Positions 6,996-22,866 of a stretch of 64,000 nt of DNA are shown here, piece after piece. The notes beneath the pieces were generated by a model that worked only from the letters and a program-made list of their open reading frames with translations, was not told the DNA's origin and did no database searches. How positions within the stretch are numbered: the stretch's first letter is position 1; each line of letters starts with the position of its first letter. The translations under genes and the position numbers were made by a program. Source of the DNA: an uncultured Bdellovibrionales bacterium (lineage in GTDB: Bacteria > Patescibacteriota > Minisyncoccia > Moranbacterales > GWC2-37-73); NCBI GenBank assembly GCA_964500125.1, contig CAZCMV010000001.1, positions 54,119-118,118 of the forward strand, in the 5' to 3' direction.

Positions 6996-8660
6996 ATGAC
7001 TACAAATAAAACACAGGAAATCAAGTATTTCCTTTATGCGAGAAAATCTTCAGAAAGCGAAGACCGCCAGGTGCAATCAATCGACGACCAGGTTGGCAGA
7101 TTGGAGCGGTTAGCCAAGGAGAGAAACTTTCACATTAAGCACATTTACAAGGAATCAAAATCAGCGAAGAAACCAAACAATCGTCCCCTTTTTGATGAAA
7201 TGATGAAAAGAATTGAAAGCGGAGAGGTGGACGGAATTTTATGCTGGCACCTCAATCGTCTTTCCAGGAATCCGATAGACAGCGGGAAAATAAGCTGGCT
7301 CTTGCAACAAGGAGTTATCAAGTCGATTCAAACGATGGAAAAAGAATTTAGACCCGAAGACAATGTTTTGCTTTTTAGCGTTGAAAGTGGAATGGCAAAT
7401 CAATTTTGCCGAGAATTAAGCGTGAATGTAAAACGAGGCAATCAAAAGAAGCGAGAGGACGGCTGGAGACCTGGAATTGCACCCACAGGTTATTTAAACG
7501 ACCTAGCAACCCACACGATGCCCATAGACCCGTTGCGATTCAGATTGCTTCGCAAAGCGTGGGATTTGATACTTACTGGAAATTACACCGTGCCACAAGT
7601 TGCCGACAAACTTAATAACGAATGGGGATTCCGAACGATAAAGAAAAAACGACTTGGAGACAAGCCATTGGCATTAAGCGGGATGTATAAAATTTTCACC
7701 AATATCTTTTATGCAGGAATAATTGAACACAATGGAGTTCACTATCCAGGAAAACATAAGGCGATGATTACCTTGGATGAATTTGACCGTGCACAAATCA
7801 TACTTGGACACAAAGGGAAACCCAGACCCAAAAAACATCACTTCCCTTTCACAGGATTATTCCGTTGCCCTGAATGCGGTTGTATGTATACCGCTGAATT
7901 GAAAAAAGGGAAATATGTTTATTATCATTGCACACACAAAAATAAAAAAGTTAAATGTTCACAAAGAAAAGTTCTGGAGGAGAAAAAGCTCTTAGAACAA
8001 CTTGAATACGAACTTGGAAAATATACCATACCCCAAGAACTGCTCGCTTTGGCATTGGAAATAATCGAAAGCAGAAAGGAGACCAAAGCAGACGATGAAA
8101 AAATAATAGCCGAGACTCGCCAGCAAACTTTAGAGAAATTGAAAAACCAACAATCAAATCTCATAAGAATGCGAAGCAACGATATGATTGATGATGAACA
8201 ATTCAAAGTCCAAAGCGAACCGATAAAAAAAGAGATTGAGAGATTAAGTAATGAGCCTATGAGTGCCAAAGACCGAAAAGAAAAAACCCTAGAGCTAACT
8301 GAAAAAACTTTTGCCTTTTATGCTTACGCCCACAAAGCGTTTCTGACTGGCAATGATGAAACACGAAGAGAGCTTATATTTCATTTAGGTTCGAACCACG
8401 AAATAAAAGACAGAATAACCTCCATACAAGCCAAAGAATGGTTTTTGCCCGTAGCAAATAAGCGCAATGATATAAAGCGAGAATTTGAAAGGTTAGAACC
8501 GATGAAAAGTGGCTGTATAAAAGCAAAAAGCGGGCAATTAAGCCCACTTCTTAGCACTATGCACGGGGCTATGGACACGACTAGGAACAATATTTTGGAA
8601 AACTGGGACAGGATTGATGTCAGATTACAGCGCGCTCAAGCCTTATTACAGCGAATTTAA
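6996..8660 (+). CDS. large serine recombinase (resolvase/invertase catalytic domain + recombinase domain + zinc ribbon), element 1
   Basis: N-terminus YARKSSESEDRQVQSIDDQ (catalytic Ser motif), CWHLNRLSRN, and C-terminal CxxC...HC zinc ribbon; 554 aa. Confidence 0.85.
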   Translation: MTTNKTQEIKYFLYARKSSESEDRQVQSIDDQVGRLERLAKERNFHIKHIYKESKSAKKPNNRPLFDEMMKRIESGEVDGILCWHLNRLSRNPIDSGKISWLLQQGVIKSIQTMEKEFRPEDNVLLFSVESGMANQFCRELSVNVKRGNQKKREDGWRPGIAPTGYLNDLATHTMPIDPLRFRLLRKAWDLILTGNYTVPQVADKLNNEWGFRTIKKKRLGDKPLALSGMYKIFTNIFYAGIIEHNGVHYPGKHKAMITLDEFDRAQIILGHKGKPRPKKHHFPFTGLFRCPECGCMYTAELKKGKYVYYHCTHKNKKVKCSQRKVLEEKKLLEQLEYELGKYTIPQELLALALEIIESRKETKADDEKIIAETRQQTLEKLKNQQSNLIRMRSNDMIDDEQFKVQSEPIKKEIERLSNEPMSAKDRKEKTLELTEKTFAFYAYAHKAFLTGNDETRRELIFHLGSNHEIKDRITSIQAKEWFLPVANKRNDIKREFERLEPMKSGCIKAKSGQLSPLLSTMHGAMDTTRNNILENWDRIDVRLQRAQALLQRI

Positions 8661-8814
8661 CTCTTGCGCATCTCATTAAATGACAAATATAAATTAGCGA
8701 GTGAATCTAGCCATTCATCAGCCGTTTCACTTGATACATTCAAGTCATGATTTGCCTTGAAATAAGCGATTAATCTAATCCTTAATTCTTCTGAATATTT
8801 ATATTGCATATAGC

Positions 8815-9327
8815 TTATAACTTTTCATGATTAGTTCCACCTTTTAAATCATTACTAATCGCCTGCGCTAATTCTAGAAAGTTTCCACCCACTTGAATAT
8901 GTTGTATGGGCAGACTTATTGCTGAATATAATTCATCCACGAATTGATCACGATTTTTTCGTCTTGGGTCATTGTGTGATTTTCCATCCAATTCAATGGC
9001 AAGCAATGGTTTTGTTGTGGCATGATTGCACACAAGAAAATCAACATGGCGCGATTTGATTTTGCCACGAAGACCCCAATGACCATTACTGGATATATTC
9101 TTCTTGTCCACATCTACAAAGTCCTCAATGCGCACCTTAGACAATACAATATAAGCGTCTCCCAGCGCCTTCTGCAGATTAATGAATAATGCTTGCTCTG
9201 ATTCATTCATCACCCTGTCCTTCTTCTGATATGAAGACAAGCTCGTCAGTCTTTCCTTCTTCTCAATGAATGCCTTAGCAAGAGCAACAGCGACAATGAA
9301 GACGATTAAGATAATTGTCCAAGTCAT
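8815..9327 (-). CDS. DUF2726-family (restriction-endonuclease-like fold) protein with N-terminal TM anchor (170 aa)
   Basis: RHVDFLVCNHATTKPLLAIELDGKSHNDPRRKNRD matches the DUF2726 core (VDF..., ELDG.SH); N-terminal hydrophobic helix. Confidence 0.55.
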   Translation of the reverse strand: MTWTIILIVFIVAVALAKAFIEKKERLTSLSSYQKKDRVMNESEQALFINLQKALGDAYIVLSKVRIEDFVDVDKKNISSNGHWGLRGKIKSRHVDFLVCNHATTKPLLAIELDGKSHNDPRRKNRDQFVDELYSAISLPIQHIQVGGNFLELAQAISNDLKGGTNHEKL

Positions 9328-9413
9328 GGTTTTATTATTATTGAATTATATTTAATGAAACACGAAAACAAATCAACCCCGCTGTTTATCATGCAATAGT
9401 TGAAGAAAAAATA

Positions 9414-10214
9414 TTACTTTCCAGAAACATTATTTTCATAAACAAATACTGCACCATTTTTTTCAACAACATCCTTAACACATCGCATCCTTTCAATGAA
9501 ATTATCATCTGATTCATTTAAACTTTTCTTACAATCGTCACTCCATTTTTCCAACAAAAGAAGCCCTGCATGATGTAAAATTTTTTCAAAATCATCCGAA
9601 GAAAGAATTTGCACTTTATTGTTAATTGCATTAGTAATCTTTTCACTTTCCTTGTCATACAATGGAACTAATCCAATTTTGTTAACAGAGAAGAAATGTG
9701 TCAGTGAATTCCTTAAATCACGCAGATTTTTTGCACTTATTTTTCCTGCTCTTTTTGGGTTCTCCATTATCCACTTATTCTCCCTGCATAGGCAAAATTC
9801 GTTTATAAATTGATCCATCGCACCATCCGAAGCATCTCTGAGTTCCGCACTATCGCTCGTTTTTTTCTGATATGCAGTATGAAGACAACGAAGTGTCTCA
9901 AGATGAGCGAAAAGTACAATAAACTCCGACCTAACAGGACGAGGGAAATGGAACTTATCGGCTAACGTTTCCGGATTTTCAGAGAGTGTAAAGTTTAAAT
10001 CGTCCGGCGGATTCATTTTTGACATAAGAGCCAATAGTTCTCTGCATTGTCTTTTTATATCTTTCAGTCTTTTCTTATAGCCCATTAACTCATTAACTTC
10101 TGCTTCAATCTGAATTAAAAAACGAAAGACAACCCCAAATTCTGGATGAATATCAATTCTGTTTTGAACCTTATCCATAATCACAAATGGCATATTTTCT
10201 ATATTCTTGTTCAT
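9414..10214 (-). CDS. HEPN-motif (RNxxxH) protein (266 aa)
   Basis: NLRDLRNSLTHF contains R-N-x3-H; 4-nt ATGA overlap with upstream gene (translational coupling). Confidence 0.45.
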   Translation of the reverse strand: MNKNIENMPFVIMDKVQNRIDIHPEFGVVFRFLIQIEAEVNELMGYKKRLKDIKRQCRELLALMSKMNPPDDLNFTLSENPETLADKFHFPRPVRSEFIVLFAHLETLRCLHTAYQKKTSDSAELRDASDGAMDQFINEFCLCRENKWIMENPKRAGKISAKNLRDLRNSLTHFFSVNKIGLVPLYDKESEKITNAINNKVQILSSDDFEKILHHAGLLLLEKWSDDCKKSLNESDDNFIERMRCVKDVVEKNGAVFVYENNVSGK

Positions 10215-10828
10215 ATTGAAAAAGTTGTATTTTCAATGGTATCACCGACAATAAGTGAAAAGCTTTTGGTGGATGACACACCATTTTGAGTATTTACAGT
10301 AATTGTTATCTTGTATTTTCCACGCTCAAGTTTATGACTAGGATTTTTCCAGTCATAAACATATGATTCATTATTCCAACCATATGCCTCCTTGTCTTTT
10401 TCGTATTTTGTAATCACATCTAAAAATTCCTGATTACCGGCTAAAATTGTGACAGGATCCGGTTCAAAAAGTCTCAAAATGGCGTTGTCCTTTAAAAATG
10501 GTAGCTCTGGCGTTGACGCCCAGCGCCCCTTGAACGAAAGGTGTGTTTTATTATCAACTCCAGAAATATTTATCATTGCCCTGCAATTTTCAGCAGTTTG
10601 ACGAACAAGCCATGTTAATAAAAATGGCATTCTCTGATTAACGACAGCAACTCTGAAAAATTTCCATCGTTGACCAGAATGAGAACTGCTATTTTGATAA
10701 GTATTATCAGAATGAGCTTCTTCTGTAACTAAAATTTCAATCGCAGGCATCCTCATCCGATCAAACCACAATGCAAGCAAAATTCCAAAAAAAGTTGTAG
10801 CGATCGATAAAATTATATTTTCAAGCAT
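10211..10828 (-). CDS. single-pass membrane protein of unknown function (205 aa)
   Basis: N-terminal TM helix; 2 nt after the MTase stop and overlapping the next gene start. Confidence 0.45.
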   Translation of the reverse strand: MLENIILSIATTFFGILLALWFDRMRMPAIEILVTEEAHSDNTYQNSSSHSGQRWKFFRVAVVNQRMPFLLTWLVRQTAENCRAMINISGVDNKTHLSFKGRWASTPELPFLKDNAILRLFEPDPVTILAGNQEFLDVITKYEKDKEAYGWNNESYVYDWKNPSHKLERGKYKITITVNTQNGVSSTKSFSLIVGDTIENTTFSI

Positions 10829-10830
10829 AT

Positions 10831-13800
10831 TTATTTAATGCAATTATTTACTACCTCAACCTCTTCCATTGTAAGTCCGTAAAATCCAAAGATGAGCTTA
10901 TCAATTTGTAATTCAAATTCTCTAATATCGGAGCCATCATTCTCCCTCTTAATATCTAAAATGCGCTCGACAATACTTATAACTTCTTCCTGTTCTTTTT
11001 TATTGCCAATAAAAATAGGTATTTCAATAATTGGATCCTTGTCAATTTGATAATTATTACCCTGCATCTTTCCTTTATTGTGAAGCCAAAAAGCAATTAG
11101 TTTAGAATTCAATATTCCAGTTAAATACTTTTGATTAATTCTACTTGTTTTTATAGAAAAAAATGCCCTAGAAACATAACAAGGAAAATCCGTGTAGGTA
11201 AATGTTGGACATGCACATTTTCTAACGGACATTATTTTTTCTCCTTGAAAAAAAGATTCTTTCCTTGGTCTATTTAAACCATAAGGTCCATTCTCAGATG
11301 TAATAATATCCTTAAATTTATCTAGATGCTTTTTTACCTCAGGATAATCATTGATTTTATCAGCTTTTTTAAATGATGAATCCGTATAGATGATCCAGAA
11401 CTTATTTTTTTTATTTCCAAAAATACCCTTTAATTCTTTTGTTGTATAATATGGTTTTAATAATTTATTTTCTTTTTCTGACAACTTAATGTTTTCTTTT
11501 TCATTATTTGAAAGAACAAATATACCATCTCCTATTTTAAAATTATTGCCAATTTCTTTTAAGGATTTTTTATTTACAAAATCCTGAAGAACATCAATTC
11601 CAGACATTAACTCACTTTTACCATCAATGAAAAACTTACCCTTTTCTGAAATCTTATTCAATATATTATTATCCTGAAGACTGCTAAAGACAAAGGTTTT
11701 ATTCTCGAAATAAGAACGATTGAAATTAGGATTAAGGTAGCAAAACTTATCATCCTTAACTTTATTTAATATTTTATTTACACAATTCAATGAAATTTTA
11801 TCATCAATTATTTTTCTATAATCAAATTGATACTCATTTAAACTATTATTTCGCTGAAGCAACATTATCATTGTTTGAATATCAGCACTTTCAAAAATTT
11901 TATAATTACCAAAATCAATAAAAGAAATCATTTTGGCATCTTTTGCGATCTTTAATCTAAGCTTAGAGGCCCCCGCATTTGTAACCCAATTATTAGAAGC
12001 AATAAAAGCAAGCACGCCAGTATTGGTCTTAAGTAAATCAATGAAAGTACAGGCAAAAAGATACCACAAATCCATTTTCCCTTGATAATACTGACTTTCA
12101 CGAAGTCCATCGAAAGCAGATTTATCTGTATGCTCTTTAATATAAGGTGGGTTCCCAATAACTACATCAAAACCACCCTTCTCTCTGAAAACGTCACTAA
12201 ACTCAAGCTTCCAAATAAAAAATGGACGGATATTCTTACGCCTAAGTTCTTTTATTTCCTCAAGCTTTTCCGTTTTACCCTGTTCTGCCAGTGTAATCTC
12301 AATCAGTTCCCACTTTAAATTATCAATCTCTTCTTTCAATTCTTGCTTATGTGTTCTTCGTGATTCACTTATGTATTGTTCAATTTTATTATGCAGAAGC
12401 TTAGTTTTCTCTTCTGCAATTCTCCTTTTTTCTGGAATTCCAAAAAGATTATTACTACTCGTATCAGAATTTTCAGATCCCTTGGAAAATAATTTAAGTC
12501 TTGATTGTAATGATTTTATTTCCCTCTCAATTTCCATCTTTCTAATTACTGTCAACTTGCCCTTATAATGCAGATCAAAATACTCCCGTTGAAATTTAGA
12601 AATTTCATCATTGACTTCTACTTTTTCTTTTTCTAAAGATTGCGCACTTTCAAGTATTGAATCATCAAATAATTTAATGCCTTCATATTCGGAAATAAGA
12701 CTATTACCTTGCATTATTTTATGCTCGAGATTTGGCAAGGGGTGCGGAATGTTTTCATCAACAACCAATGACAGCCAGAGGCGAAGCTTAGCGATTTCAA
12801 CCGCACCAGGATCAAGATCAACACCATAAATGGAATGGGAGATAGTGTGAAGTTTTAATTCATAATCAGAAATATTATCATCAAGATATATATTTAAGAC
12901 CTTTCTAGCTCTAACTATCTCATTAATCATGCCAAGCGGAAATGCGCCCGAACCAACAGCAGGATCAGCAATTTTTATATTTTCTAAGAGCTGATCTAAC
13001 AAAATTGCTTTTGATCTAATAGAGCCAGGCAGAAGTAATTCATATTTACCTCTATATTCAAAACCGCTAATTTCCTTTTCCCTTATCTTTTCTAGAGCAA
13101 CTTTGTCATTATCAATGATTCTATCTCCCCTACGTATAAGCAACTCTAAATCCTGCCTTGCAATATCAGTGCCGACTTCAGCTTCCAAATAGTTAATAAG
13201 ACTTTCTTGGCACATATAATGTACAATTTCACGAGGAGTGTAAAAAGCGCCCTTGCTTTTTCTATCTTTGATATCAAGCAAGTTTTCAAAAACTTTTCCA
13301 AGCATTTCAGGATCAACCGCAACCTCTTTTTCTAAAGGCTCATTTTCATTTACAGTAAAATTATATCTATCAAAAATATCAAAAATACCATCTCCGATAT
13401 CCCCTTCTTTGGTTCTATTATTATTAGAAAAAAGATCGTCAGGAAGAACAATGTTGGTGGTTTCCCATTTATATCCATTCATTGGTTCAAATAATCCACC
13501 ATTTAAAAATGGCATCCTGCAATTATTTAATCTAGGATAAATCGATTCCTTGCCACGATCTTGTGCAAGAGCTTCGTAAAATAATGGCTCCAAAACATCA
13601 TTAAAGAAATTTTTACCATATTTTTTTCGGCGTTCGAATAGTTCGCGTATGAATTTCTTAGGTCCCTCGCCCCATTTTTTTTCAGGCGAAACACCAAACC
13701 AGCCTTTTTTTTGTAAAAAATAAAGGAAGACAATTTGCCCTAAAGTTTTTTTTGCAAAATCAACCGTTGAAATTTCCTTTTCTTCAAATTCTTTTTTTAT

Positions 13801-14445
13801 CTTTTCATCATTAAGAAGAACAGCATCCAAACATTCCTTGAGATGAAAATATAACTCGGTATATTTACTAAAAAATTCTTTTGTTATTACTTCAATATCA
13901 AAAGCAAGTTCCAATTCTGAAAGATTTGGATTTTCATTACTTATAAGCAGATTCATAAATCTACTTTGTGCTGTATGACTACCTTCATTTTCACCAACCA
14001 AAAATGACCATCTCCGAGCAGGGGTTATTTCTGCCTTGGTTTTTAATTTTTCATTTACAACCTCCAAGGAATGTTCCAATTTTACAAGTGAAAGACGCCA
14101 ATCTCTATTTCCAGGAGAAACAAACGCTACCAAAGCTGCTTCCTTGTTATTTGTCTTAAGATACTCGGCTACAAAATTTCGTTGAGCTGTTCTAGCTCTC
14201 TCAAGAGTTGAATTTTTGTTAAGAGCAACTTCCAATATGTCTATTTTATTCCCAAAGCAATCCTCAAAATATCCAATTACCTTATATTTAAGAATAAATG
14301 GAAGAAATGAATGTTTTATGATCGGCTCAAAACCACTCGACTTATACTCCTTAAAAAGATTTCTAACGAAAAGTAGGAAGTTATTTTCATCAAACTTATC
14401 ATTAAACGCAGATGCAATAATTTTTTTTGCTTCTTCCTTTGTCAT
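10831..14445 (-). CDS. gamma-class N6-adenine DNA methyltransferase, Eco57I/PglX/DrmMI-like (1204 aa); possibly a Type IIG R-M fusion
   Basis: GAFYTPREIV (motif X), DPAVGSGAFPLG (SAM motif I), VVIGNPPYIKEH (NPPY motif IV); long C-terminal TRD-like region; ~170-aa N-terminal domain of unclear function. Confidence 0.85.
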   Translation of the reverse strand: MTKEEAKKIIASAFNDKFDENNFLLFVRNLFKEYKSSGFEPIIKHSFLPFILKYKVIGYFEDCFGNKIDILEVALNKNSTLERARTAQRNFVAEYLKTNNKEAALVAFVSPGNRDWRLSLVKLEHSLEVVNEKLKTKAEITPARRWSFLVGENEGSHTAQSRFMNLLISNENPNLSELELAFDIEVITKEFFSKYTELYFHLKECLDAVLLNDEKIKKEFEEKEISTVDFAKKTLGQIVFLYFLQKKGWFGVSPEKKWGEGPKKFIRELFERRKKYGKNFFNDVLEPLFYEALAQDRGKESIYPRLNNCRMPFLNGGLFEPMNGYKWETTNIVLPDDLFSNNNRTKEGDIGDGIFDIFDRYNFTVNENEPLEKEVAVDPEMLGKVFENLLDIKDRKSKGAFYTPREIVHYMCQESLINYLEAEVGTDIARQDLELLIRRGDRIIDNDKVALEKIREKEISGFEYRGKYELLLPGSIRSKAILLDQLLENIKIADPAVGSGAFPLGMINEIVRARKVLNIYLDDNISDYELKLHTISHSIYGVDLDPGAVEIAKLRLWLSLVVDENIPHPLPNLEHKIMQGNSLISEYEGIKLFDDSILESAQSLEKEKVEVNDEISKFQREYFDLHYKGKLTVIRKMEIEREIKSLQSRLKLFSKGSENSDTSSNNLFGIPEKRRIAEEKTKLLHNKIEQYISESRRTHKQELKEEIDNLKWELIEITLAEQGKTEKLEEIKELRRKNIRPFFIWKLEFSDVFREKGGFDVVIGNPPYIKEHTDKSAFDGLRESQYYQGKMDLWYLFACTFIDLLKTNTGVLAFIASNNWVTNAGASKLRLKIAKDAKMISFIDFGNYKIFESADIQTMIMLLQRNNSLNEYQFDYRKIIDDKISLNCVNKILNKVKDDKFCYLNPNFNRSYFENKTFVFSSLQDNNILNKISEKGKFFIDGKSELMSGIDVLQDFVNKKSLKEIGNNFKIGDGIFVLSNNEKENIKLSEKENKLLKPYYTTKELKGIFGNKKNKFWIIYTDSSFKKADKINDYPEVKKHLDKFKDIITSENGPYGLNRPRKESFFQGEKIMSVRKCACPTFTYTDFPCYVSRAFFSIKTSRINQKYLTGILNSKLIAFWLHNKGKMQGNNYQIDKDPIIEIPIFIGNKKEQEEVISIVERILDIKRENDGSDIREFELQIDKLIFGFYGLTMEEVEVVNNCIK

Positions 14446-14447
14446 AT

Positions 14448-17400
14448 CTAGTTGATATTAAAATATTCAGAAAGTATAATCTCCTTTTTTGCAGATACAC
14501 CATCATTTTGCTCGTTTTGATTTGGCATCAAGAAATCAGCAGGAAGAGTGGTTTTTAAGATTGCCAGAAGTTTAATTGGGTTCGCAATAATTTCTGGCAT
14601 TTCCTGAATTTTATTATAAATTGTTTGAGATATTTTCTTTGGAATTCCACCAGTGTTAAGCTCCTCAATAACTTGTCTAATATAAGATTCATCATCCTCT
14701 GTAAAGCCCTTAAAATTTCTAATTTCTTTTGCGCTCAAAAGCTTGTGAAGACGTGCGGCATTATCCCTACTTCCACGCTTAGATGAAAATTCTTCCTCCT
14801 CATTCTCGCCAACATTTTTCAACATTTCCAAATTCTTATCAAGCAATTCATAGAATAGTTTATCTTGTTTGTTTTTTTTCTCATCTGGCTGAGCCGATAG
14901 TGTTTTTGCCGCTTCCGTAAAATCAATCTCGGAAGAAACTGAGACTGCACCATTTTCCACAATGAAAAACTTTTGTAATTTTCCTTTTCTGAAATATGTT
15001 AGTAATTTAACAATACTATCTTTTGATTCACGAACTGTTCTTGCCTTCTTTGGAAGTCTTTTTATTTTTTCAAATAATTCAGGATTTTCATCCCTTATCC
15101 TTCTGATCTCTTGCAAATACCCAAGCTCACTTTCTCCCTCATCCATCTCACCCTCAATCATTTCTTTTGATAAGATTTGACTGAAAAGGCTGTGCCCTTC
15201 TGGGACTTCACTTTCAGTTAGAAGTTTTGCGTCAGCACCAAGCAATGTGATGAATGCTTGAATTTTAGCTTCTGCCATTTCTTTTAATTTAATCTGCTCA
15301 TTTGATTGGTCTGTTGGAAAAAAAGTATATGTATAAATTTTGTCATGTTTTGCATCGACTCTGTTTATGCGACCGACTCGTTGCATTATACGTGTAGGAT
15401 TCCATGGAATATCATAATTTATAACGACATTCGCCTGATGTAAATTAGCACCTTCAGACAAAACATCTGTTGTTATCAGAAGCGTGAAATCATTCTTAAT
15501 ATTTTTTGCATTTGCATCAAAATTCTCCATCACTATTTCTCGTTCCGCCTGTGAACTCTCTCCTGAAAAATACAGGATTTTATCTGGAAAAATATCTTGC
15601 AAATTCTTCACCAAATATTGTGCTGTTTCTTTTGATTCGGTAAATATTATAGACTTTCCAATTTTTACAGGCTCCTCAATGGCAAGCTTTTCCTTAAATG
15701 CTATGATTTTAGGATCGCGATCGATACCTTTCCATAATTCCTGAATATCTTTCAGGATATTCAAATCATTATTAAGATCAACAATAAAGTTTTCATTAAA
15801 TTCATCACTAGAAAATTTCTCCGCTTTGCCATTCGCAATAAGCTGATCAATAGCATCCAAATTATCGTTCTCTAAATAATCAAATATTTTTTGAATATTT
15901 TTTTTGCTCACATATACATTGCCAGAATTGAACTCATTTATAAATTTTTCATATGACGCAACAAAGCGATTTATCGATTGACTAAATGCAAAAAAACTAC
16001 TTTCTAATCTTTTAATCAAAAGCATTCTCATGAATTTCATCATGTTCTTTTGTTGTTGCTCCTCTGAACTCAAAAGCCCCTTATGATAAAGTAACGGCGT
16101 ATAGCGAGAATACTTGAAATCATTGGTTATAATCTTAATTGTCTCAAAAAAAACATTGTCTTCTTTTTCATTGAATTCATAAAAAATCGGCTCTGGATTG
16201 GCAATTTCAGGAAAACTCATTTTTTGTTTTTTCAAATCATCTCCGTAATATTTTGTGATTTCCGTTCTGGTGCGTCTAACCATTAAATATTTCAATACGC
16301 GCTCTCTAATCAATTTAGAGTTTTCTTTTGTAATGGAAATATATTCTTGTTTATCTTTTTGCCTGTCGAGCCCTTTAAGTTTTTTCTCTAAATTCTTAAA
16401 AAACCCCTCAAGATCAGGAAGACTTGGAATTGTACTTTTTCTTGAGCGCTGAAAAAGTTTAATCTGTGCTAACAAATCAGATGGCGAATTATTATATGGT
16501 GTAGCTGTCACCAAGATAACTTTTTTGCCCCTGCAAATCTGCGCAAGCTTTGCATAGGTATCAGTTTCCTCTGTTCTGAATCGATGCGCTTCATCAATAA
16601 GAACAACATCAAAATCCTTCTGCAAGTCCTTTTTTATTATCTTATCCAAAATCCCAATCGACATGCATTTGTAATCTTTTGCTCGAAATCCAAAATTGCG
16701 AAAAGCGTTTTCCCAGCTTCCCTCATTGCTCTCGCTAATCAAGTGTGGTGGCGCCAAAACCAATGTCCTGCCCTTTAACTCCTGACAAAGCATTGTGCCC
16801 ATGAAGGTTTTACCAAGACCCACAACATCCGAAAGAAAAACACCACCATATTCCTCCACAATTTTTCGAGCGTTAATAACAGCATGATCCTGATATTTTA
16901 ACTCCTTAAAATTGTGCGGACGGAAATTGTGCTCCAATGATTGGCTCTCATTAATCTCTTCCTTAAAATATTCATACAGAAATTTTAGATAGAGCTCGTA
17001 TGGAGTGATATCTTCGCGAAGCCATGTATCTTTTTTTATCGTTTCTAGATATTTTTCACTCACATCAACTCCTTTTTCCCATAACTCTTCAAATTTAGAC
17101 TTGGCAAATTCATAATCAGAAGGATTCTTAAGCTCAACATTAAATTCCAAATTATCCACCAAGCCACTTTGTGTAAAATTGCTTGAGCCAGTAATAACAC
17201 GACCAAGATCCCGATCATCTTCATCGAATGTCATTATGTACAATTTGGAATGAATCTTTTCTTCAGGATAAGCTCGGATTTCTAATTTATCACTAGACAG
17301 CCATTCAATAAATTTCAACACCCCTTCTTCTACTTTTACATTGTTTTCACAATCTTCCATTTCTTTTTTTACCTCCTCACCAATCTGTTCTCCTATTTCC

Positions 17401-17687
17401 TTGTGTGATTGAATTTTTTGAAGCAAATCATAAGTCTGATGATTAGTGCTAATTCCAATCAGAATTCTTATTTTTTCAGTTTTTTCCAAACTAGGATAAA
17501 TAGCATAAAAACCGCTTGTATAAAAATAACCAACCAAGACATCAAAAAAACGTGTGTCTTTAATTAAAACTCTGAAACGATCAGCAAGATTATTGTTTTT
17601 TTCATTGGTTAAAAATGTAAGATCTGTATTCATGTTTTTATTGAAAATAGAAAAATTATAAATCAGTCCATTTAAATTCAAAGGCAA
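14448..17687 (-). CDS. PLD(HKD)-family nuclease fused to SNF2-family helicase (1079 aa)
   Basis: N-terminal PLD: YFYTSGFY..., HSKLYIMTFD (HxKx4D), GSSNFTQSG. Helicase: GLGKT (motif I), VLIDEAHRFR (DEAH), C-terminal QRVGRINR (motif VI). Confidence 0.85.
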   Translation of the reverse strand: MPLNLNGLIYNFSIFNKNMNTDLTFLTNEKNNNLADRFRVLIKDTRFFDVLVGYFYTSGFYAIYPSLEKTEKIRILIGISTNHQTYDLLQKIQSHKEIGEQIGEEVKKEMEDCENNVKVEEGVLKFIEWLSSDKLEIRAYPEEKIHSKLYIMTFDEDDRDLGRVITGSSNFTQSGLVDNLEFNVELKNPSDYEFAKSKFEELWEKGVDVSEKYLETIKKDTWLREDITPYELYLKFLYEYFKEEINESQSLEHNFRPHNFKELKYQDHAVINARKIVEEYGGVFLSDVVGLGKTFMGTMLCQELKGRTLVLAPPHLISESNEGSWENAFRNFGFRAKDYKCMSIGILDKIIKKDLQKDFDVVLIDEAHRFRTEETDTYAKLAQICRGKKVILVTATPYNNSPSDLLAQIKLFQRSRKSTIPSLPDLEGFFKNLEKKLKGLDRQKDKQEYISITKENSKLIRERVLKYLMVRRTRTEITKYYGDDLKKQKMSFPEIANPEPIFYEFNEKEDNVFFETIKIITNDFKYSRYTPLLYHKGLLSSEEQQQKNMMKFMRMLLIKRLESSFFAFSQSINRFVASYEKFINEFNSGNVYVSKKNIQKIFDYLENDNLDAIDQLIANGKAEKFSSDEFNENFIVDLNNDLNILKDIQELWKGIDRDPKIIAFKEKLAIEEPVKIGKSIIFTESKETAQYLVKNLQDIFPDKILYFSGESSQAEREIVMENFDANAKNIKNDFTLLITTDVLSEGANLHQANVVINYDIPWNPTRIMQRVGRINRVDAKHDKIYTYTFFPTDQSNEQIKLKEMAEAKIQAFITLLGADAKLLTESEVPEGHSLFSQILSKEMIEGEMDEGESELGYLQEIRRIRDENPELFEKIKRLPKKARTVRESKDSIVKLLTYFRKGKLQKFFIVENGAVSVSSEIDFTEAAKTLSAQPDEKKNKQDKLFYELLDKNLEMLKNVGENEEEEFSSKRGSRDNAARLHKLLSAKEIRNFKGFTEDDESYIRQVIEELNTGGIPKKISQTIYNKIQEMPEIIANPIKLLAILKTTLPADFLMPNQNEQNDGVSAKKEIILSEYFNIN

Positions 17688-17814
17688 TGCCTATTGATTA
17701 AGGCAAATTTTGGCTTTGTTTCAAGTTTTTCCGTGCTTTAATGGTATCACTAAGTCAGCATTTATTCAAGCTATTTGACAAGAATCGCCACTTGTATATT
17801 ATTGAGGTAAGAAA

Positions 17815-18028
17815 AAGGTTACCCTGCACCGGACTCGAACTAGGAATTCGGAAAAGTCTATGGCAGGGAGTGTTTCCTCGGAGCAAGAGAAAAAAGAATT
17901 GCTCCTGTAATGCGCAGATTGCCAATGCTGCCGGGACACTTTAAGGCACAGTCAAGATCCCTCTTTATGATGTGGTTTTGTATGTGCTCAGATTCTTTTT
18001 CAAGAACCGCATCATATGCGGTTTTTTT
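17815..18028 (+). ncRNA. candidate small RNA ending in an intrinsic terminator; contains a tRNA T-arm-like fragment
   Basis: GC-enriched, non-coding; ggactcgaac (T-loop-like) at 17828-17840; hairpin ggagcaa-N12-ttgctcc at 17878-17905; terminator aaccgcatcatatgcggttttttt at 18005-18028. This orientation would be divergent from the defence operon promoter. Confidence 0.25.
18005..18028 (+). terminator. rho-independent terminator
   Basis: 8-bp GC-containing stem aaccgcat/atgcggtt, 3-nt loop, followed by T7. Confidence 0.5.
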
Positions 18029-18055
18029 GTCGTGAAAAATAAAAATCAAACAAAA

Positions 18056-18232
18056 ATGCAATCCCAATTCAGCCCAGCATTAATAGCCAAGTGCCAAAAA
18101 GTGATCTTCCAGAAATCAGGCAAAAAAATCAGCAAAGCGAAAGCCGAGCTGTATCTGGAAAAATTCGCGCGATATTTCATGCTGGCCGTGAAAGTTTTGG
18201 ATCAAGAAGCAAAAACTAAAAAATTAAAATAA
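18056..18232 (+). CDS. small hypothetical protein (58 aa)
   Basis: ATG at 18056 in frame with listed ORF; lysine-rich C-terminus. Confidence 0.3.
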   Translation: MQSQFSPALIAKCQKVIFQKSGKKISKAKAELYLEKFARYFMLAVKVLDQEAKTKKLK

Positions 18233-18239
18233 AAATCCA

Positions 18240-18515
18240 ATGGCAAAAATCATTAAAATTGACGAAATATCCCAAATTAAACTCCTTTCTGGCAATATAA
18301 TGCTTCAGCATTTGAAAAAATCTAAAACTGGACGAATAGCGTGGGTTACAGACGGCAATTTTTCCACATGGGCATCAACGTGTGAGTTCTACATTTTTCA
18401 GGCACCATACCGCACCATTGAAGGCACAGCGCAAATTGAGAGACTAATCGAAGTCGTGATAAGGTCGACCGACCAGATCAGTCAGGTTTTAATAGATAAC
18501 AATTTAAACAATTAA
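18240..18515 (+). CDS. small hypothetical protein (91 aa)
   Basis: ORF immediately following previous small ORF; same strand. Confidence 0.35.
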   Translation: MAKIIKIDEISQIKLLSGNIMLQHLKKSKTGRIAWVTDGNFSTWASTCEFYIFQAPYRTIEGTAQIERLIEVVIRSTDQISQVLIDNNLNN

Positions 18516-18527
18516 TAACAAAACAGT

Positions 18528-18710
18528 ATGACTGATGAAAAAGCTGAAAAATTCCCTGATGGAATCTGTCCGTTCATGAGCACACCGGAAAATCCGGTAC
18601 CATGTAGCGGAATATGCCAACTTCACAGAAAAGGCAAAAAAGGTTTTGCCTGTCCATGGCATGATCTTGCCATTATTGCCTGGAATTTGAAACCCGAAAA
18701 CAGACGCTAA
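18528..18710 (+). CDS. small cysteine-rich (zinc-ribbon-like) protein (60 aa)
   Basis: CPF...PCSGICQLH...CPWH gives 5 Cys/2 His spaced like a zinc-binding knuckle. Confidence 0.35.
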   Translation: MTDEKAEKFPDGICPFMSTPENPVPCSGICQLHRKGKKGFACPWHDLAIIAWNLKPENRR

Positions 18711-18720
18711 AGCGTGACGG

Positions 18721-18970
18721 TTTCGAAAAAGAAAGGCGCCCCAAAGAAAAACACTATATATACAAAATGCATCCATGTTCAAGAATTGAACTTTCGAAAA
18801 GAAACGATGTACATATAACCATATATTATATATACATTATGTTCCCATGTTCAAGAATTGAACCTTCGATGAGAAAAGATGTATATATAAACATTCAATA
18901 TATATAAATAGCCACCCCATATATATTTTTTGTTTTTTTCCATGTAAGGGCGCCGAACTTTTTCGAAGGT
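18721..18970. repeat. AT-rich cassette: two ~70-bp direct repeats, each with a TTCAAGAATTGAA palindrome, flanked by ~20-bp imperfect inverted repeats (GGCGCC...CTTTTTCGAA)
   Basis: Direct repeats at 18771-18844 and 18845-18910; left flank tttcgaaaaagaaaggcgcc (18721-18740) and right flank gggcgccgaactttttcgaa (18948-18968) are reverse complements with 3 mismatches. Confidence 0.5.
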
Positions 18971-19099
18971 TTAAAAAAAACGGAATTCATTAAAAGATTT
19001 AAAAGAAAAATAAAAATGCATCTGAAATCTGACAAAATCGCGCGATAAGTGCTACAAGCTAGACAGGATTTGTTTTATGGCTCAAAGAAGCCATTATTC

Positions 19100-19900
19100 A
19101 AACACTAACTGGTGAGCCTGATTAAGAGAGCAATTTTCCGCCAGCCCGCACCCGCAACGAACCGCAGACTTCAGCAAATTCACAAAACCAAACAGAGGCG
19201 CAGTTGAGCATTTTGAGAGTTGCTGTCACGCATTCCAAAAAGAAATTTTCTGAGCAGGTGCCTTGTTTTTCTCTTGGCGACCACGGGAGCACAAGAGCAA
19301 AAAACAAGAGCATCAGCGGAGGGAAATTTCGTCGTGACAGCAACGGTCAAGAAAAAGGAGCGGAAAGATTGTGCTTGGAGGACGATTAAGTCCGACAAGC
19401 TTTCATTATCCGCGACCACCTTTGACACGATTGAGAAGCGAACCACCAGCGTTGATTGCAATGAGAGGGAGAGCGAACGACCGTCCCTGCAGAGCGACCA
19501 CTTCTTTTGAAGTCGTTGCAGTCTCAAGCCCCTCAAGACTGAGGGGTTGGGGGTGTTGAAAGTCCAAGCGAGAAAAGAAAAGAGTGTCTGACAATGCTGC
19601 ATTCTTGCGACATTCCAAGCTGTCAAAAATGACGCCGAGGGAACGCAGAAGGAAATTTTTGAAACAGCTTGTGCCAATGTCGCAAAATGTCACATTGTCA
19701 GAGGGTGAGAAACACCTTCCTTCAGAATGTTAAATCGTCAAAGTGTTTCTCAATCCCCTTGCACCTTTTCTTTTCAACTCCTTGAGGGATTGGAGTTTGA
19801 GGAAAACCGCAGTGGTTTTCTCTCATTTTTAAAGAGTTTTTTCAAAATCTATAAAAATAGTGCGGTGAGAAACATTTTTCTATTCGAAAAGAATTGAAAC
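19100..19900. other. GC-rich (~50%) non-coding island; candidate large structured RNA or decayed foreign DNA
   Basis: No convincing ORF on any frame (overlapping low-complexity ORFs on both strands); perfect hairpins e.g. cccctca-agac-tgagggg (19531-19548); long-range complement tgcgacatt (19606)/aatgtcgca (19677); motif ggtgagaaaca twice (19705, 19867). Confidence 0.3.
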
Positions 19901-19935
19901 TTGCCTGTCTGATTTTTCCGGTAATCCGGAAAATA

Positions 19936-20337
19936 TCAGTCTGGCAAGTTCTCCTCTGTGTATTTATATTTTCGAATAGAAAAATGTTTCTGACCGCTTT
20001 CCTTAATGATTGATTTTGAAAAGACCTCCGCTTTGTATTTAAAGAGTTTGGCGAGAATTAAGACTGCTTTTTCGGAAAAATCTTTGCCGAGCCAACTCCC
20101 TATTTGGAGCCGTAGAAGCACGGAAAGTATCACTAGAAATAAATAAAATACTATGATATTATTGATGTGGACACAACTAAAATACTCATCGAAGACAGAA
20201 AGGGCAACCTTTGCTGCAATCTTCGATGAGAAGTTGTGTCCAAAGCGGGGTTGTCCTTTTTGTTTTGCAAAAAATATGAATCTTCTGGACACAATTTCTT
20301 TATCAAATAGCGGAATGGCCAGCGCAGGCGAGCTCAT
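19936..20337 (-). CDS. hypothetical membrane-associated protein (133 aa)
   Basis: ORF divergent from recombinase 2; one hydrophobic helix. Confidence 0.3.
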   Translation of the reverse strand: MSSPALAIPLFDKEIVSRRFIFFAKQKGQPRFGHNFSSKIAAKVALSVFDEYFSCVHINNIIVFYLFLVILSVLLRLQIGSWLGKDFSEKAVLILAKLFKYKAEVFSKSIIKESGQKHFSIRKYKYTEENLPD

Positions 20338-20399
20338 CTTGTTTTTCGGTGTGATCGCACTAATGATTTTTGACGAAATAATTTCTAAAAATAAATAAT

Positions 20400-21989
20400 A
20401 TGAAATACGTCATTTATGCCCGAAAATCAACCGAGAGCGAAGACCGCCAAGCGCTCTCAATTCAATCTCAAATCTTTGAGATGAAAGAAGTCGCCAAGCG
20501 CGAACATCTTAAAATTGTTGAGGTTCTGGAAGAATCCAAATCCGCCAAACAACCCGGCCGACCGATTTTCAATGATATGATTAAGAAATTCAAAAGCGGA
20601 AAATATGAAGGAATTCTCTGTTGGAAAATAGACCGACTCGCCAGAAATTCACTCGACGCAGGAATGGTGCAATGGCTTTTGGAAAAAGGAACAATCAAGC
20701 AAATAAAAACCTTTGAGCGCGATTATAATCCAAGCGACAACGTCGTGATGGCCAGCATTGAGTTTTCAATGGCCAACCAATATGTCCGCGACCTTTCCAA
20801 GAATGTGAAGCGTGGACAGGCGGAAAAGATTCGTCGTGGCGAATATCCTGCCACTCCCCCAGTCGGATATCTCATCGATTATAAAACCAAGAAAATATAC
20901 ATCGACGAAGATAAATGGCATCACATCAAAAAAGCTTTCCAGCTTTATGCGACTGGAAATTATTCAATTCCAAAACTGGCCGAGAAACTTTCAAAGGAAG
21001 GTTTTCGCTCACGCAATGGCCGACCAGTCCACGGATCCGGAATATACCAAGTTCTCAATAATCCTATTTATTACGGATGGTTTCGTTGGAATGACCAAAT
21101 CTATAAAGGAATTCATGCTCCGATGATTTCCAAGGATTTGTTTGATGCGGTGCAAGAAGTTTTTCATCCAAGAAAGCACACAGTTGAACGCAACGTTCAC
21201 AATTTTGTTTTTCGTGGGCACTTGGTTTGTGGAGAATGTGGATTGAAAATAACTGCAGAAACTCAAAAAGGTCATGTGTATTATCACTGCACAAAATCAA
21301 AAGGCGTGGACAAATGTTCACAGAAATATTTGCGCGAGGAAGATTTGATCACAGAAATCGACAGCCGTTTGGCAAAACTAAAAATTGACGAGGATGTGCT
21401 CGACCTTATGATTGAAGCATCAAGAGAATTGAGCAAGCATGAATGGAACGACATCCGCGAAATAGAAAAGAAACATCAAGCACTTCTGGACAATAATAAA
21501 TTCAGACAGGACTCACTCATTGAAAAGTACATCAGCAATGTCATTCCGGATGAGCACTACAATCGCAAATTGGCAGAGCTTCGCAATGAAGAAGCGGACA
21601 TCGAAGACAATCTGCGAAGCACCAAGGAGAATTTTCACAATGTTTTTGAGAAGATTGAATTGGCTGCGAGATTCGCCAAATTTGCCAAAAAGATCTTTGG
21701 GCGTGGCGATTTAGAAATCAAAAAAGAAGTTGTGGCAATCCTGACTTCGAACATTATCATAAAAGACAAGCAAATAAAGGAATTTCGCCTCGCTGAGCCA
21801 TTCGCCAGCGTGATGAAAGATGTTGAAATCACAAAGGGAAAAGGCAACGGAAAATCCAGTATCGAACTTGGCAGTTTTGCTTTATCTAAAACTAAAACAG
21901 CCCCCAAAAGGGAGGCTGTTTCACTTATGCACGGGGTGAGGGAATCGAACCCCCGCCAAAAGTTTTGGAGACTCTCGTTCTGCCACTAA
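20400..21989 (+). CDS. large serine recombinase, element 2 (paralogue of 6996-8660)
   Basis: YARKSTESEDRQALSIQSQ catalytic motif, CWKIDRLARN, zinc ribbon CGECG...HC; about 45-50% identical to recombinase 1 over the N-terminal 170 aa; 3' end reads through the tRNA-Trp 3' half (…HGVRESNPRQ…). Confidence 0.85.
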   Translation: MKYVIYARKSTESEDRQALSIQSQIFEMKEVAKREHLKIVEVLEESKSAKQPGRPIFNDMIKKFKSGKYEGILCWKIDRLARNSLDAGMVQWLLEKGTIKQIKTFERDYNPSDNVVMASIEFSMANQYVRDLSKNVKRGQAEKIRRGEYPATPPVGYLIDYKTKKIYIDEDKWHHIKKAFQLYATGNYSIPKLAEKLSKEGFRSRNGRPVHGSGIYQVLNNPIYYGWFRWNDQIYKGIHAPMISKDLFDAVQEVFHPRKHTVERNVHNFVFRGHLVCGECGLKITAETQKGHVYYHCTKSKGVDKCSQKYLREEDLITEIDSRLAKLKIDEDVLDLMIEASRELSKHEWNDIREIEKKHQALLDNNKFRQDSLIEKYISNVIPDEHYNRKLAELRNEEADIEDNLRSTKENFHNVFEKIELAARFAKFAKKIFGRGDLEIKKEVVAILTSNIIIKDKQIKEFRLAEPFASVMKDVEITKGKGNGKSSIELGSFALSKTKTAPKREAVSLMHGVRESNPRQKFWRLSFCH

Positions 21990-22000
21990 ACTAACCCCGC
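21930..22000 (-). tRNA. tRNA-Trp(CCA)
   Basis: Reverse complement folds as cloverleaf: acceptor GCGGGGT/ACCCCGT (G1-U72), anticodon stem AGAGT/ACTTT with loop CUCCAAA, T-arm GGGGG-TTCGATT-CCCTC, discriminator G. Confidence 0.75.
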
Positions 22001-22449: not shown

Positions 22450-22522
22450 AGCCGTTGTGCGGGATCGAACCGCAGACCTCATCCTTACCATGGATGCGCT
22501 CTACCAACTGAGCTACAACGGC
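22450..22522 (-). tRNA. tRNA-Thr(GGT)
   Basis: GCCGTTG...CAACGGC acceptor, D-arm GCTCAGTTGGTAGAGC, anticodon loop AUGGUAA, T-arm TGCGG-TTCGATC-CCGCA. Confidence 0.85.
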
Positions 22523-22866
22523 ATATTTTCTTTTTTTAGATAATTACTCAGTTGTTTTTTCAAAAATCTCCTACCGGACCCTGATTTAAGAAATTTTTCC
22601 CTTCCAAGAGCATCTTTTTTGACCAAATATAATTCCGCATAAATCAATCGCCAACTACCCTTTAGTTTATGCGTATATGTACTCTTCCCGTGATTATGAT
22701 CTTGTATTCTCTTTTTGAGATCTGTCGTAAAACCTATGTACCATGAAAAATTCAACTGATTCTCGATCACATATACAACGTAATATTCTTGGCCGTGCCG
22801 CGTAATCATGAGCGGTCCTTTAAAAATACGTAGTCCCCGTAAAATAATTTGATTACAAATTATCAC
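22513..22866 (-). CDS. GIY-YIG nuclease family protein (YhbQ/UPF0213-like)
   Basis: YYVVYVIENQLNFSWYIGFTTDLKKRIQDHNHG is the GIY-YIG core; true start probably the internal Met (MITRHG...); stop lies inside the first 10 nt of tRNA-Thr. Confidence 0.65.
   Translation of the reverse strand: MIICNQIILRGLRIFKGPLMITRHGQEYYVVYVIENQLNFSWYIGFTTDLKKRIQDHNHGKSTYTHKLKGSWRLIYAELYLVKKDALGREKFLKSGSGRRFLKKQLSNYLKKENMPL

Follow-up and report, generated by a model that had tools for sequence, protein, structure and literature searches.

What is encoded by a GC-rich, hairpin-rich stretch of DNA that lies upstream of a recombinase gene and yields no plausible protein? This question was raised by positions 19,100-19,900 of a 64,000 nt stretch of contig CAZCMV010000001.1 (assembly GCA_964500125.1), which was analysed as a whole and is referred to below as the window. 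An original prediction, made from the letters alone, had proposed this island of ~800 nt as a candidate large structured RNA, with a decayed gene as the alternative. The island was found to lie in an element of ~13.4 kb (about 8568-21937) that was integrated into tRNA-Trp by a large serine recombinase (LSR). It is part of a non-coding region of about 1 kb that is conserved and rich in base pairs, and it most likely represents a new large structured RNA. In its full form, our reading is that the island is the plus-strand gene for a large multi-domain structured RNA and a fixed part of the backbone of LSR elements in Parcubacteria/Moranbacteria; we give this a probability of about 0.72.

Composition and folding of the island

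The GC content of the island (19100-19830) was 0.472 compared to 0.362 for the whole window, and 100-nt windows across 19050-19700 ranged from 0.44 to 0.55. This confirmed the GC enrichment described in the original prediction, with the background at about 36% and not the 33% given there. The island itself was also confirmed; its bounds were not, as the structured region is wider, from about 19037 to 20046 and possibly to 20130. Elevated GC is an established feature of structural RNAs in AT-rich genomes. Folding of 19037-19832 as RNA gave -283.3 kcal/mol against -225.9 ± 8.8 kcal/mol for dinucleotide shuffles (z = -6.6), and the reverse strand gave z = -5.8.

The sequence motifs that had first been noticed were all located. 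The hairpin cccctca-agac-tgagggg lies at 19529-19546 and the hairpin atggct-caaaga-agccat at 19077-19094, just before the start originally proposed. The complementary pair tgcgacatt/aatgtcgca proved to be both strands of the mid-part of one long hairpin (19587-19702), and the repeated 11-mer ggtgagaaaca, at 19704 and 19864, forms the 5′ strand of two distinct helices.

Homologous islands in related elements

Homologues were gathered through the LSR, from genome contigs, from metagenome contigs and from twelve contigs looked up after a protein search; the related loci are numbered L001, L002 and so on. They came from Parcubacteria/Moranbacteria assemblies, with LSRs 48-91% identical. In all of them the backbone was ordered alike, and a GC-rich gap without genes, 0.6-1.8 kb long, preceded the LSR gene. 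Analysis of the gap by blastn revealed only patches of similarity; nhmmer aligned the window between 18950 and 20400 to nearly all loci. A hidden Markov model (HMM) of the core of the island found 13 distinct homologous sequences, each adjoining a related LSR. One of these, L023, has kept the island although the whole element is at most about 4 kb. GC-rich gaps to which the core HMM was blind were present at the same place in L001 (6990-7700), L025 and L030 (2400-3650); these were left out of the analyses and probably represent subfamilies of this RNA that have diverged. No similar DNA was found in phage and plasmid collections, IMG/VR contained neither an LSR relative nor a match to the motif GCATTCTTGCGAC..CGCAAAATG, and the window holds no second copy of the island.

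Alignment of the window with L026 showed 92.4% identity between the islands, with substitutions spread evenly over the three phases (25/30/28) and seven of ten indels not multiples of three. The LSR genes of the same two loci were 76.3% identical, with 197/95/64 substitutions by phase and no indels. Likewise, L031 (2593-3707, aligned to 19037-20135 of the window) shared 87.8% identity over the core plus the downstream domain DD compared to 64.5% over the LSR DNA, and L035 (2495-2805) shared 80% over DD compared to 61% over the LSR DNA. From these alignments, either the island evolves more slowly than the LSR gene or modules may have been exchanged between elements. Either explanation of the higher conservation of the island points to a function.

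Compensatory base changes

To let MAFFT align the stems of the core (alignment A4), NNNN was put in place of the variable tips of two hairpins, M6 and P4; the structure was set from the majority register. As controls, pairing partners were slid by 1-3 columns and 500 shuffles were made. Over the 55 pairs of the core, 86.4% of cells were paired compared to 49.5-62.0% with slid partners. Changes on both sides were seen at 26 pairs (95 cells) compared to 10-18 pairs (16-37 cells) with slid partners, and none of the 500 shuffles reached any of the observed measures. The long-range helix Pa, of which nine of 14 pairs had changed on both sides, was formed by four quite different sequences (GAAAAGAAAAG.., GGAAAAGAGTTGAT, GGAAAAATCCACGA and GCGGGAAT). 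Changes on both sides were also found at 6/12 pairs of the M6 base and 6/14 pairs of P4, and at ten of the 22 pairs when M6 was taken alone. Helix H1 occurred as CCCCTCA/TGAGGGG, CCCCGCCA/TGGCGGGG, CCCTCGCC/GGCGAGGG and CCCTCTCA/TGAGAGGG.

For domain DD, ten sequences were aligned with MAFFT without further editing, and RNAalifold's own structure was used. Changes on both sides were present at 38 of its 56 pairs, 91.8% of cells were paired compared to 38.5-56.9% with slid partners, and no shuffle (0/500) matched this. The core and DD together comprise about 110 modelled pairs, 64 of them with changes on both sides. Pa and M6 were additionally found unaided by RNAalifold on the unedited MAFFT alignment, and the minimum free energy (MFE) structure of the single sequence contains the helices of the three-way junction. 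Homologous non-coding regions with compensatory changes were thereby recovered from 13 distinct related elements, and the candidate large structured RNA of the original prediction is supported by the syntenic gene-free homologues, by these changes and by the lack of codon periodicity.

Depletion of TA and the open reading frames of the island

The dinucleotide TA (UpA in RNA) occurred nine times in 19060-19832, compared to 54.9 ± 5.4 times in mononucleotide shuffles, an observed/expected ratio (o/e) of 0.16; only four occurrences fell in 19124-19830, and the o/e of the whole window was 0.67. In the homologous islands for which TA was measured (L002, L004, L006, L023, L026, L028, L029, L031, L033, L035 and L039), the o/e was 0.18-0.37 compared to 0.46-0.71 for their loci. 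Because of this depletion, TAA and TAG stops are missing in all six frames, which results in long nonsense open reading frames (ORFs). The near-absence of TA likewise leaves the island nearly free of -10 boxes on both strands. Three reasons for the avoidance of UpA are possible: a long-lived RNA may be selected to lack the dinucleotide that is most labile to nucleases and hydrolysis; -10-like boxes may be kept out, which in an AT-rich genome would prevent transcription from within the island and on its antisense strand; or the RNA may escape a UA-specific ribonuclease.

Overlapping nonsense ORFs on both strands, which the original prediction had described, were indeed present (165 aa on the minus strand, 96 aa on the plus strand and 95 aa on the minus strand), and no ORF of the island had a Pfam match above the family cut-off. 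The minus-strand ORFs of three loci (165, 164 and 182 aa) shared 24-28% identity with many gaps and were rejected as a conserved protein. A search of 5.8 billion proteins revealed four unnamed relatives of the 165-aa ORF, including one from a Candidatus Moranbacteria genome; evidently, the same spurious ORF had been called in closely related sequences. Phase bias, frame-keeping indels and homologous proteins, by which a protein-coding gene would be recognised, were all lacking in the island, and the decayed gene considered in the original prediction fell away on the same grounds: no codon periodicity, frame-breaking indels, unconserved ORFs and only four unnamed relatives for the longest of them.

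Frame +0 contained only TGA stops over 19109-19921, and in both frames +0 and -1 every stop between the bounding TAA/TAG codons was TGA. Recoding of TGA was considered and rejected, as TAA and TAG are missing in all six frames through the depletion of TA and as the substitutions show no phase bias. TGA is not a sense codon here, because the ORFs of 1204 aa and 1079 aa in the same element are intact under table 11 without in-frame TGA.

Anatomy of the island

Multiple alignment of the homologues showed conserved blocks interrupted by lineage-specific insertions. The shared layout is modular, consisting of a 5′ domain, variable hairpin insertions, a three-way-junction core and the DD hairpin (Table 1). 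The blocks of the 5′ domain are ATCGCGCGAT (19037-19046), the ATGGCT/AGCCAT hairpin (19077-19094), GCAACGAAC (19154-19164) and CAGAGGCGCAG (19193-19203), and the blocks of this domain in the multiple alignment also include CAGAGGCGC. RNAalifold kept a GGCU/AGCC hairpin and a GCGC:GCGC closure in this domain, both nearly invariant.

The insertion that follows the 5′ domain is common only to the window and L026. Other hairpin modules occupy this site in L031, L002, L029, L004 and L033, and there is almost none in L006, L023, L028 and L035. L002 (6700-7080) and L029 (2720-3100) carry an internally duplicated RNA module of the form CAACGAAGC ... GAGGCG ... hairpin ... AAGCGACGAG, the hairpin of which covaries between loci (GCAATTTT/AAAATTGC, GCATTTTT/AAAAATGC and GTGTTTTT/AAAAACAC).

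Within the core, P4 has been cut down to GGCAACGCC in L004 and L028. The hairpin P5 was conserved in 11 of 13 homologues, being missing in L035 and L039, and is possibly the 3′ end of one form of the transcript. In L001, an M6-like hairpin (GTCGCACAATCT.../...AGATTGTGCGA) with the short closing helix CAAGCC/GGCTTG was recognised by eye. The arms of DD are an outer (19836-19849/20012-20025), a middle (19862-19890/19969-19997) and an inner one (19898-19917/19931-19950). Two pairings were dropped from the model as inconsistent across homologues: that of the 5′ domain with the region after Pa, which the MFE structure had suggested, and that of CCCC (19755) with either G-run. A check by eye of the island against the leader of the LSR operon and against the attachment (att) core found nothing that covaries.

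Table 1. Features of the island and of the element that carries it, in window coordinates
Feature	Position	Strand	Description
5′ domain	19037-19212	+	blocks common to 11-12 homologues
Lineage-specific hairpin insertion	19213-19520	+	arms 19213-19230/19333-19350 and more; long hairpins in the MFE structure
Core	19524-19832	+	H1, G-run, Pa, M6, P4, P5
Helix H1	19529-19535/19540-19546	+	followed by the conserved G-run TTGGGGGTGTTGAAA; feature extends to 19561
Long-range helix Pa	19572-19585 with 19763-19775	+	closes the three-way junction around M6 and P4
Hairpin M6	19587-19702	+	116 nt
Hairpin P4	19703-19757	+	followed by the conserved junction CTTGC (19758-19762)
Hairpin P5 and T-run	19802-19830	+	GAAAACC-GCAGT-GGTTTTC; terminator-like in the window and L002
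Domain DD	19836-20025	+	one long interrupted rod-like hairpin spanning about 190 nt
Cargo	8815-17687	-	DUF2726, two unknown ORFs, type IIG restriction-modification methyltransferase (1204 aa), HKD/PLD-SNF2 helicase (1079 aa)
Candidate promoter of the backbone operon	17775-17802	+	TTGACA-16-TATTAT, 11/12 consensus matches
Small backbone ORFs	18056-18232, 18240-18515, 18528-18710	+	58 aa, 91 aa and 60 aa (Cys-rich); from the ORF list
Inverted repeat, 20 nt	18722-18741/18948-18967		flanks the 72-bp tandem repeat
Tandem direct repeat, 72 bp	18755-18898		AT-rich, iteron-like; two copies, 81% identity
Promoter-like site of the LSR operon	20134-20162	+	extended -10, TAGAAA-17-TG-n-TATTAT; conserved in 14/16 loci shown
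Second structured RNA (leader)	20168-20266	+	about 100-120 nt, covarying; in all 16 loci (e.g. L002 7718-7873, promoter included)
Hydrophobic peptide ORF	20276-20398	+	40 aa, MNLLDTISLSNSGMASAGELILFFGVIALMIFDEIISKNK; stops 1 nt before the LSR start codon
LSR gene	20400-21989	+	Resolvase, Recombinase and Zn_ribbon_recom; 3′ end enters tRNA-Trp
tRNA-Trp	21929-22000	-	integration target; LSR ORF ends inside

Strand and transcription

The pattern of mismatches, the folding energies and the orientation of the island favour a plus-strand transcript. The model pairs of DD included 30 G·U compared to seven A·C, and those of the core 43 G·U compared to 29 A·C, the latter blurred by register shifts of the window lineage. 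The plus strand of the core folded better in 10 of 13 sequences, by a mean of 7.7 kcal/mol and with more G·U pairs, and the island is co-oriented with all genes of the backbone. No plus-strand terminator-like site was predicted in the window between the promoter at 17775 and P5 (19801). Rightward transcription would start at this conserved promoter and run through the small ORFs, or would start at an unrecognised promoter near 19030, and would end at P5 or after DD. The predicted RNA would be about 0.8 kb to P5 and about 1.0 kb with DD.

The carrier element

The LSR encoded downstream of the island matched PF00239 (E = 7e-19), PF07508 (E = 2e-15) and PF13408 (E = 8e-10). The att core atgcacgggg was found at 21927-21936, at the junction of the LSR gene and tRNA-Trp, and a second time within the 3′-terminal part of another LSR gene (6996-8660), at 8558-8567. 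With its three domains, att core and defined ends, the carrier is an LSR integrative element. The two LSRs are 37% identical and their alignment reaches the same 'MHG' codons. As the att core is shared at these equivalent codons, the sequence indicates that the window holds two different LSR elements that inserted in tandem in tRNA-Trp. Because the att site lies within the 3′-end of the recombinase gene, integration exchanges the C-terminal tail of the encoded enzyme. Of 12 homologous loci that were scanned, 11 had a tRNA overlapping the LSR gene at its end; the twelfth, L008, stops inside the LSR gene. A tRNA cluster adjoins the insertion site, and a 117-aa ORF (22513-22866, minus strand, between tRNA-Thr and tRNA-Tyr) appeared GIY-YIG-like by eye (YVVYVIEN...YIGFTTDLKKRIQDHN). 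The original prediction had noted that large structured RNAs are characteristic of prophages and of elements next to tRNA genes. The element is indeed inserted in tRNA-Trp; it is not recognisable as a prophage, the carrier being a serine-recombinase integrative island with defence genes.

The left part of the element is minus-strand cargo, and the right part is the backbone, which lies entirely on the plus strand. The order of the backbone is a promoter-like site, three small ORFs, an AT-rich repeat, the island, a second promoter-like site, the leader, a peptide ORF and the LSR gene. The cargo looks like a defence island, and related elements carried different cargo at each locus, with other restriction-modification or helicase genes. 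The 1079-aa helicase had DISARM DrmD- and BrxH-like matches. In L026 (1-2323), a group II intron reverse transcriptase (RVT_1, GIIM) and an IS200/IS605 Y1 transposase were encoded in the backbone upstream of the RNA.

The hexamers of the promoter at 17775 recurred at the homologous place in L002 (5392-5419), and the three small ORFs (18056-18710) shared about 70% DNA identity with L001, L002, L004 and L006. None of the three had a Pfam or PHROG match. The 91-aa protein had 13 homologues, all unnamed, among the 5.8 billion proteins. Its AlphaFold2 model (pLDDT 85) consists of four strands and two helices; a Foldseek search of the model against the PDB found no significant neighbour, with a weak, non-significant resemblance to PC4-like single-stranded DNA binders. 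Between the Cys-rich ORF and the island, short AT-rich repeats, direct or inverted, were present in every homologous locus and differed from one locus to the next (for example L001 6805-6870, L002 6390-6520 and L035 1800-1880). These repeats look like binding sites for an element-specific protein, as at an origin, a partition site or an operator.

The leader and the peptide-LSR operon

The leader, a second structured RNA, comprises the helices P1 (GGACACAA/TTGTGTCC), P2 and an optional P3, and a terminator-like stem of 13 bp, T, which is followed by a U-run. As the 5′ strand of T sits in the loop of P2, T must be knotted or alternate with P1/P2. Alignment of 16 loci gave 37 pairs with 94.6% of cells paired, compared to 40-49% with slid partners, and 18 pairs changed on both sides; the model pairs included 62 G·U compared to four A·C. 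No Rfam family matched the leader. It is clearly RNA, because it is flanked by a promoter and an ORF and has a U-run at its end, and it looks like a cis-acting regulator of the peptide-LSR operon. Peptides similar to the 40-aa hydrophobic one were encoded in L001, L004 and L039; the peptide could serve as a leader peptide, as a partner in the membrane or as a toxin.

Alternative explanations

Several points weigh against the island being the gene for a plus-strand RNA. The island RNA is a prediction from sequence. The alignments contain just 10-13 homologues, which are mutually related and were all found through the LSR, and the shuffle control ignores phylogeny and is therefore inflated. The core alignment was loop-trimmed and its structure curated on the same sequences, the 5′ domain aligns poorly, shows little covariation and is the weakest-supported part, and the 19213-19520 insertion is shared with L026 only. 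The G·U excess of the core is modest and would be expected for plus-strand single-stranded DNA (ssDNA) too. The three exceptions to the strand preference form one lineage (the window, L026 and L031), in which the two strands are about equally stable. There was no convincing -35/-10 upstream of 19037; a dedicated promoter just upstream of this position was considered and rejected, as only the A-rich conserved blocks GAAAAAATAAAAA and TTGCGGAATTC, at variable spacing, were found there. Searches of the backbone proteins by Pfam, PHROG and Foldseek revealed no recognisable RNA-binding domain, and any mode of action for the RNA is at present a guess.

The alternative that survives best, itself unlikely, is a cis-acting replication RNA, that is, a pre-primer or origin transcript like ColE1 RNA II which starts beside the iteron-like repeats and primes the excised circle. 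The island lies directly 3′ of the element-specific AT-rich repeats, the backbone ORFs include no Rep, primase or other replication domain, and the size and heavy folding recall the roughly 550 nt of RNA II. Conserved G-run and C-run motifs (19547-19561 and 19754-19759) and the retention of the island in the minimal element L023 are also consistent with priming. ColE1-type origins, however, have no iterons, and neither a conserved antisense promoter of the RNA I kind nor an Rfam RNAI or ctRNA match of weight was found. The multi-domain layout, the optional modules and the rod of ~190 nt would be superfluous for priming, and autonomous replication of the element is itself an assumption.

It is less probable still that the hairpins act as ssDNA, with the folded plus strand recognised by a protein at an sso-, oriT- or attC-like site. 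Structure is conserved over sequence, as in attC and sso, both strands of the island fold well, and the 91-aa protein has the weak, non-significant PC4-like topology described above. The strand asymmetry is compatible with this explanation because G·T is the most tolerated mismatch in DNA hairpins. However, at 0.6-1.1 kb the island is several times the size of known sso, oriT and attC sites, and a long-range helix that closes a three-way junction, together with A-rich unpaired linkers, is typical of RNA. No relaxase, rolling-circle Rep or tyrosine recombinase was encoded in any locus, LSRs use double-stranded att sites, and the similarly conserved adjacent leader is clearly RNA.

A giant cis-regulatory 5′ region of the LSR operon, in which the folded RNA would modulate read-through from upstream, is improbable. 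The island is immediately upstream of the peptide-LSR operon and co-oriented with it, the backbone order is invariant, and both P5 and the leader offer terminator-like hairpins; nevertheless, the island and the leader are separated by a conserved extended -10 promoter, the leader alone is regulator-like, and the island recombines independently of the LSR gene (in L031 the RNA is 88% and the LSR gene 64.5% identical to the window). Since the leader exists, the large island is not needed as a regulator of the LSR operon, and with a promoter and leader belonging to that operon it is probably not a single-gene regulator.

A decayed or recoded protein gene, or a functionless selfish palindrome of the MITE (miniature inverted-repeat transposable element) kind kept uniform by DNA conversion, is very hard to credit: the long ORFs on both strands, the two frames with TGA stops only and the long near-perfect inverted repeats are outweighed by the lack of codon periodicity, the unconserved ORFs, the single copy in the window, the fixed position in 13 elements and a conservation above that of the neighbouring essential gene, and palindrome conversion in particular is counted out because the helices keep bulges and G·U pairs that it would erase.

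Proposed role and significance

If the island does encode a plus-strand RNA, we tentatively propose, at somewhat less than even odds, that this RNA is a stable trans-acting scaffold, or part of a ribonucleoprotein (RNP), for the small basic and Cys-rich proteins of the element and that it serves the excised mobile phase in maintenance, replication or transfer. The RNA, the small ORFs, the leader and the LSR are the constant part of such elements and the cargo is the part that varies between them. The avoidance of UpA would give a long-lived RNA, an island free of -10-like boxes, or both. A bolder and doubtful idea is that the RNA is the main 'gene' of a minimal LSR element of about 4 kb and is required for mobility. 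It could then be a cofactor or directionality switch of the recombinase, or a self-assembling particle like those of GOLLD and ROOL that guards the circle or transfers it between ultra-small cells of the candidate phyla radiation (CPR). If this were true, it would be RNA-dependent DNA mobility of a kind not known for serine recombinases.

To our knowledge, few bacterial RNAs exceed about 500 nt and have a complex conserved fold. Every class described to date has led to new biology, namely the ribosomal RNAs, RNase P, the group I and II introns, OLE, GOLLD, ROOL and HEARO/omega RNA. The host studied here belongs to the CPR, in which non-coding RNA biology is almost unexplored. Because the island is tied to a simple and well-delimited element, a few parts placed in a heterologous host are enough to test its role. 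The leader matters in another respect, as little is known of how serine integrases, common tools of genome engineering, are regulated in nature.

Comparison with known RNAs

Rfam 15 was scanned at the gathering threshold on the window and 12 loci, at E <= 10 on 18400-20500 and at E <= 1 on four further loci. No family was found in the island gap of the window and the 16 loci; the only matches were tRNAs and chance miRNA-type matches to the long hairpin. There was no covariance-model match to GOLLD (RF01998), ROOL (RF03087), HEARO/omega RNA (RF02033), OLE (RF01071), raiA, the group II intron (RF00029) or tmRNA (RF00023), and ARAGORN found no tmRNA, so that all of the families suggested by the original prediction (GOLLD, ROOL, HEARO, raiA, group II intron and tmRNA) went unmatched. 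Full-text literature searches revealed no paper describing the island RNA or the element.

The attC sites and plasmid sso are single DNA hairpins of 60-300 nt that work with tyrosine recombinases or in priming by RNA polymerase. The island resembles them in the conservation of structure over sequence and in strand specificity, and differs in its length of about 1 kb, its multi-helix junction and the lack of such enzymes. The IS110 bridge RNA, the IS1111 seekRNA and the omega RNAs of IscB/TnpB are 150-350 nt long and guide an enzyme by base pairing. Like these, the island lies beside the recombinase gene of a mobile element. LSRs, by contrast, use their protein domains to recognise double-stranded att sites, the window between 17600 and 22000 encodes neither IscB or TnpB nor a reverse transcriptase, and a non-systematic check by eye found no complementarity of the island to the att core or tRNA-Trp.

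ColE1 RNA II is a structured RNA of several hundred nt (roughly 550 nt) in a replicon without an initiator protein, and has G-rich and C-rich interaction motifs. The island is likewise heavily folded with G-run and C-run motifs; however, it is about twice as long and modular, lies beside iteron-like repeats and is without an antisense RNA I. No minus-strand promoter-like site was found in 19050-19830, Rfam RNAI did not match 18400-20500, and ctRNA_p42d appeared only at E = 8.7, elsewhere.

OLE RNA, of about 600 nt and conserved, forms an RNP with small dedicated proteins, including a membrane protein, whose genes lie next to its own; it is chromosomal in extremophilic Firmicutes. The small conserved ORFs upstream of the island and the 40-aa hydrophobic peptide just downstream of it recall this arrangement, and a partnership is guessed at. 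The island differs in having no match to the OLE model, and the scanned backbone ORFs had no Pfam match and hence no visible Oap homology, the 40-aa peptide having been scanned only within an 81-aa ORF.

GOLLD and ROOL are RNAs of about 600-800 nt with many helices and of unknown function, carried by integrated mobile elements and prophages, often by tRNA genes. Both were originally spotted through GC and conservation signals. The island is likewise large, many-helixed, borne by a mobile element and in a tRNA neighbourhood. It exceeds 500 nt, has many covarying helices, is non-coding and lies in an integrated mobile element near tRNA genes, as RNAs of this kind do; because the Rfam scan was negative, it is something of the GOLLD/ROOL kind and none of the named families. 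Among the papers on such RNAs (PMC5737381, PMC12286853), recent cryo-EM work on GOLLD, ROOL and OLE is reported to show that cage-like oligomers can be formed (PMC12286853). The island differs from GOLLD and ROOL in that it is found in Parcubacteria, on a small LSR carrier without phage genes, and is dominated by two long rods and a three-way junction, with optional modules and an extreme depletion of UpA. On the sequence comparisons made here, we file the predicted RNA as a new family within the known kind of large structured RNAs of mobile elements, set apart by its CPR host, its minimal serine-recombinase carrier, its modular hairpin expansions and its extreme avoidance of UpA.

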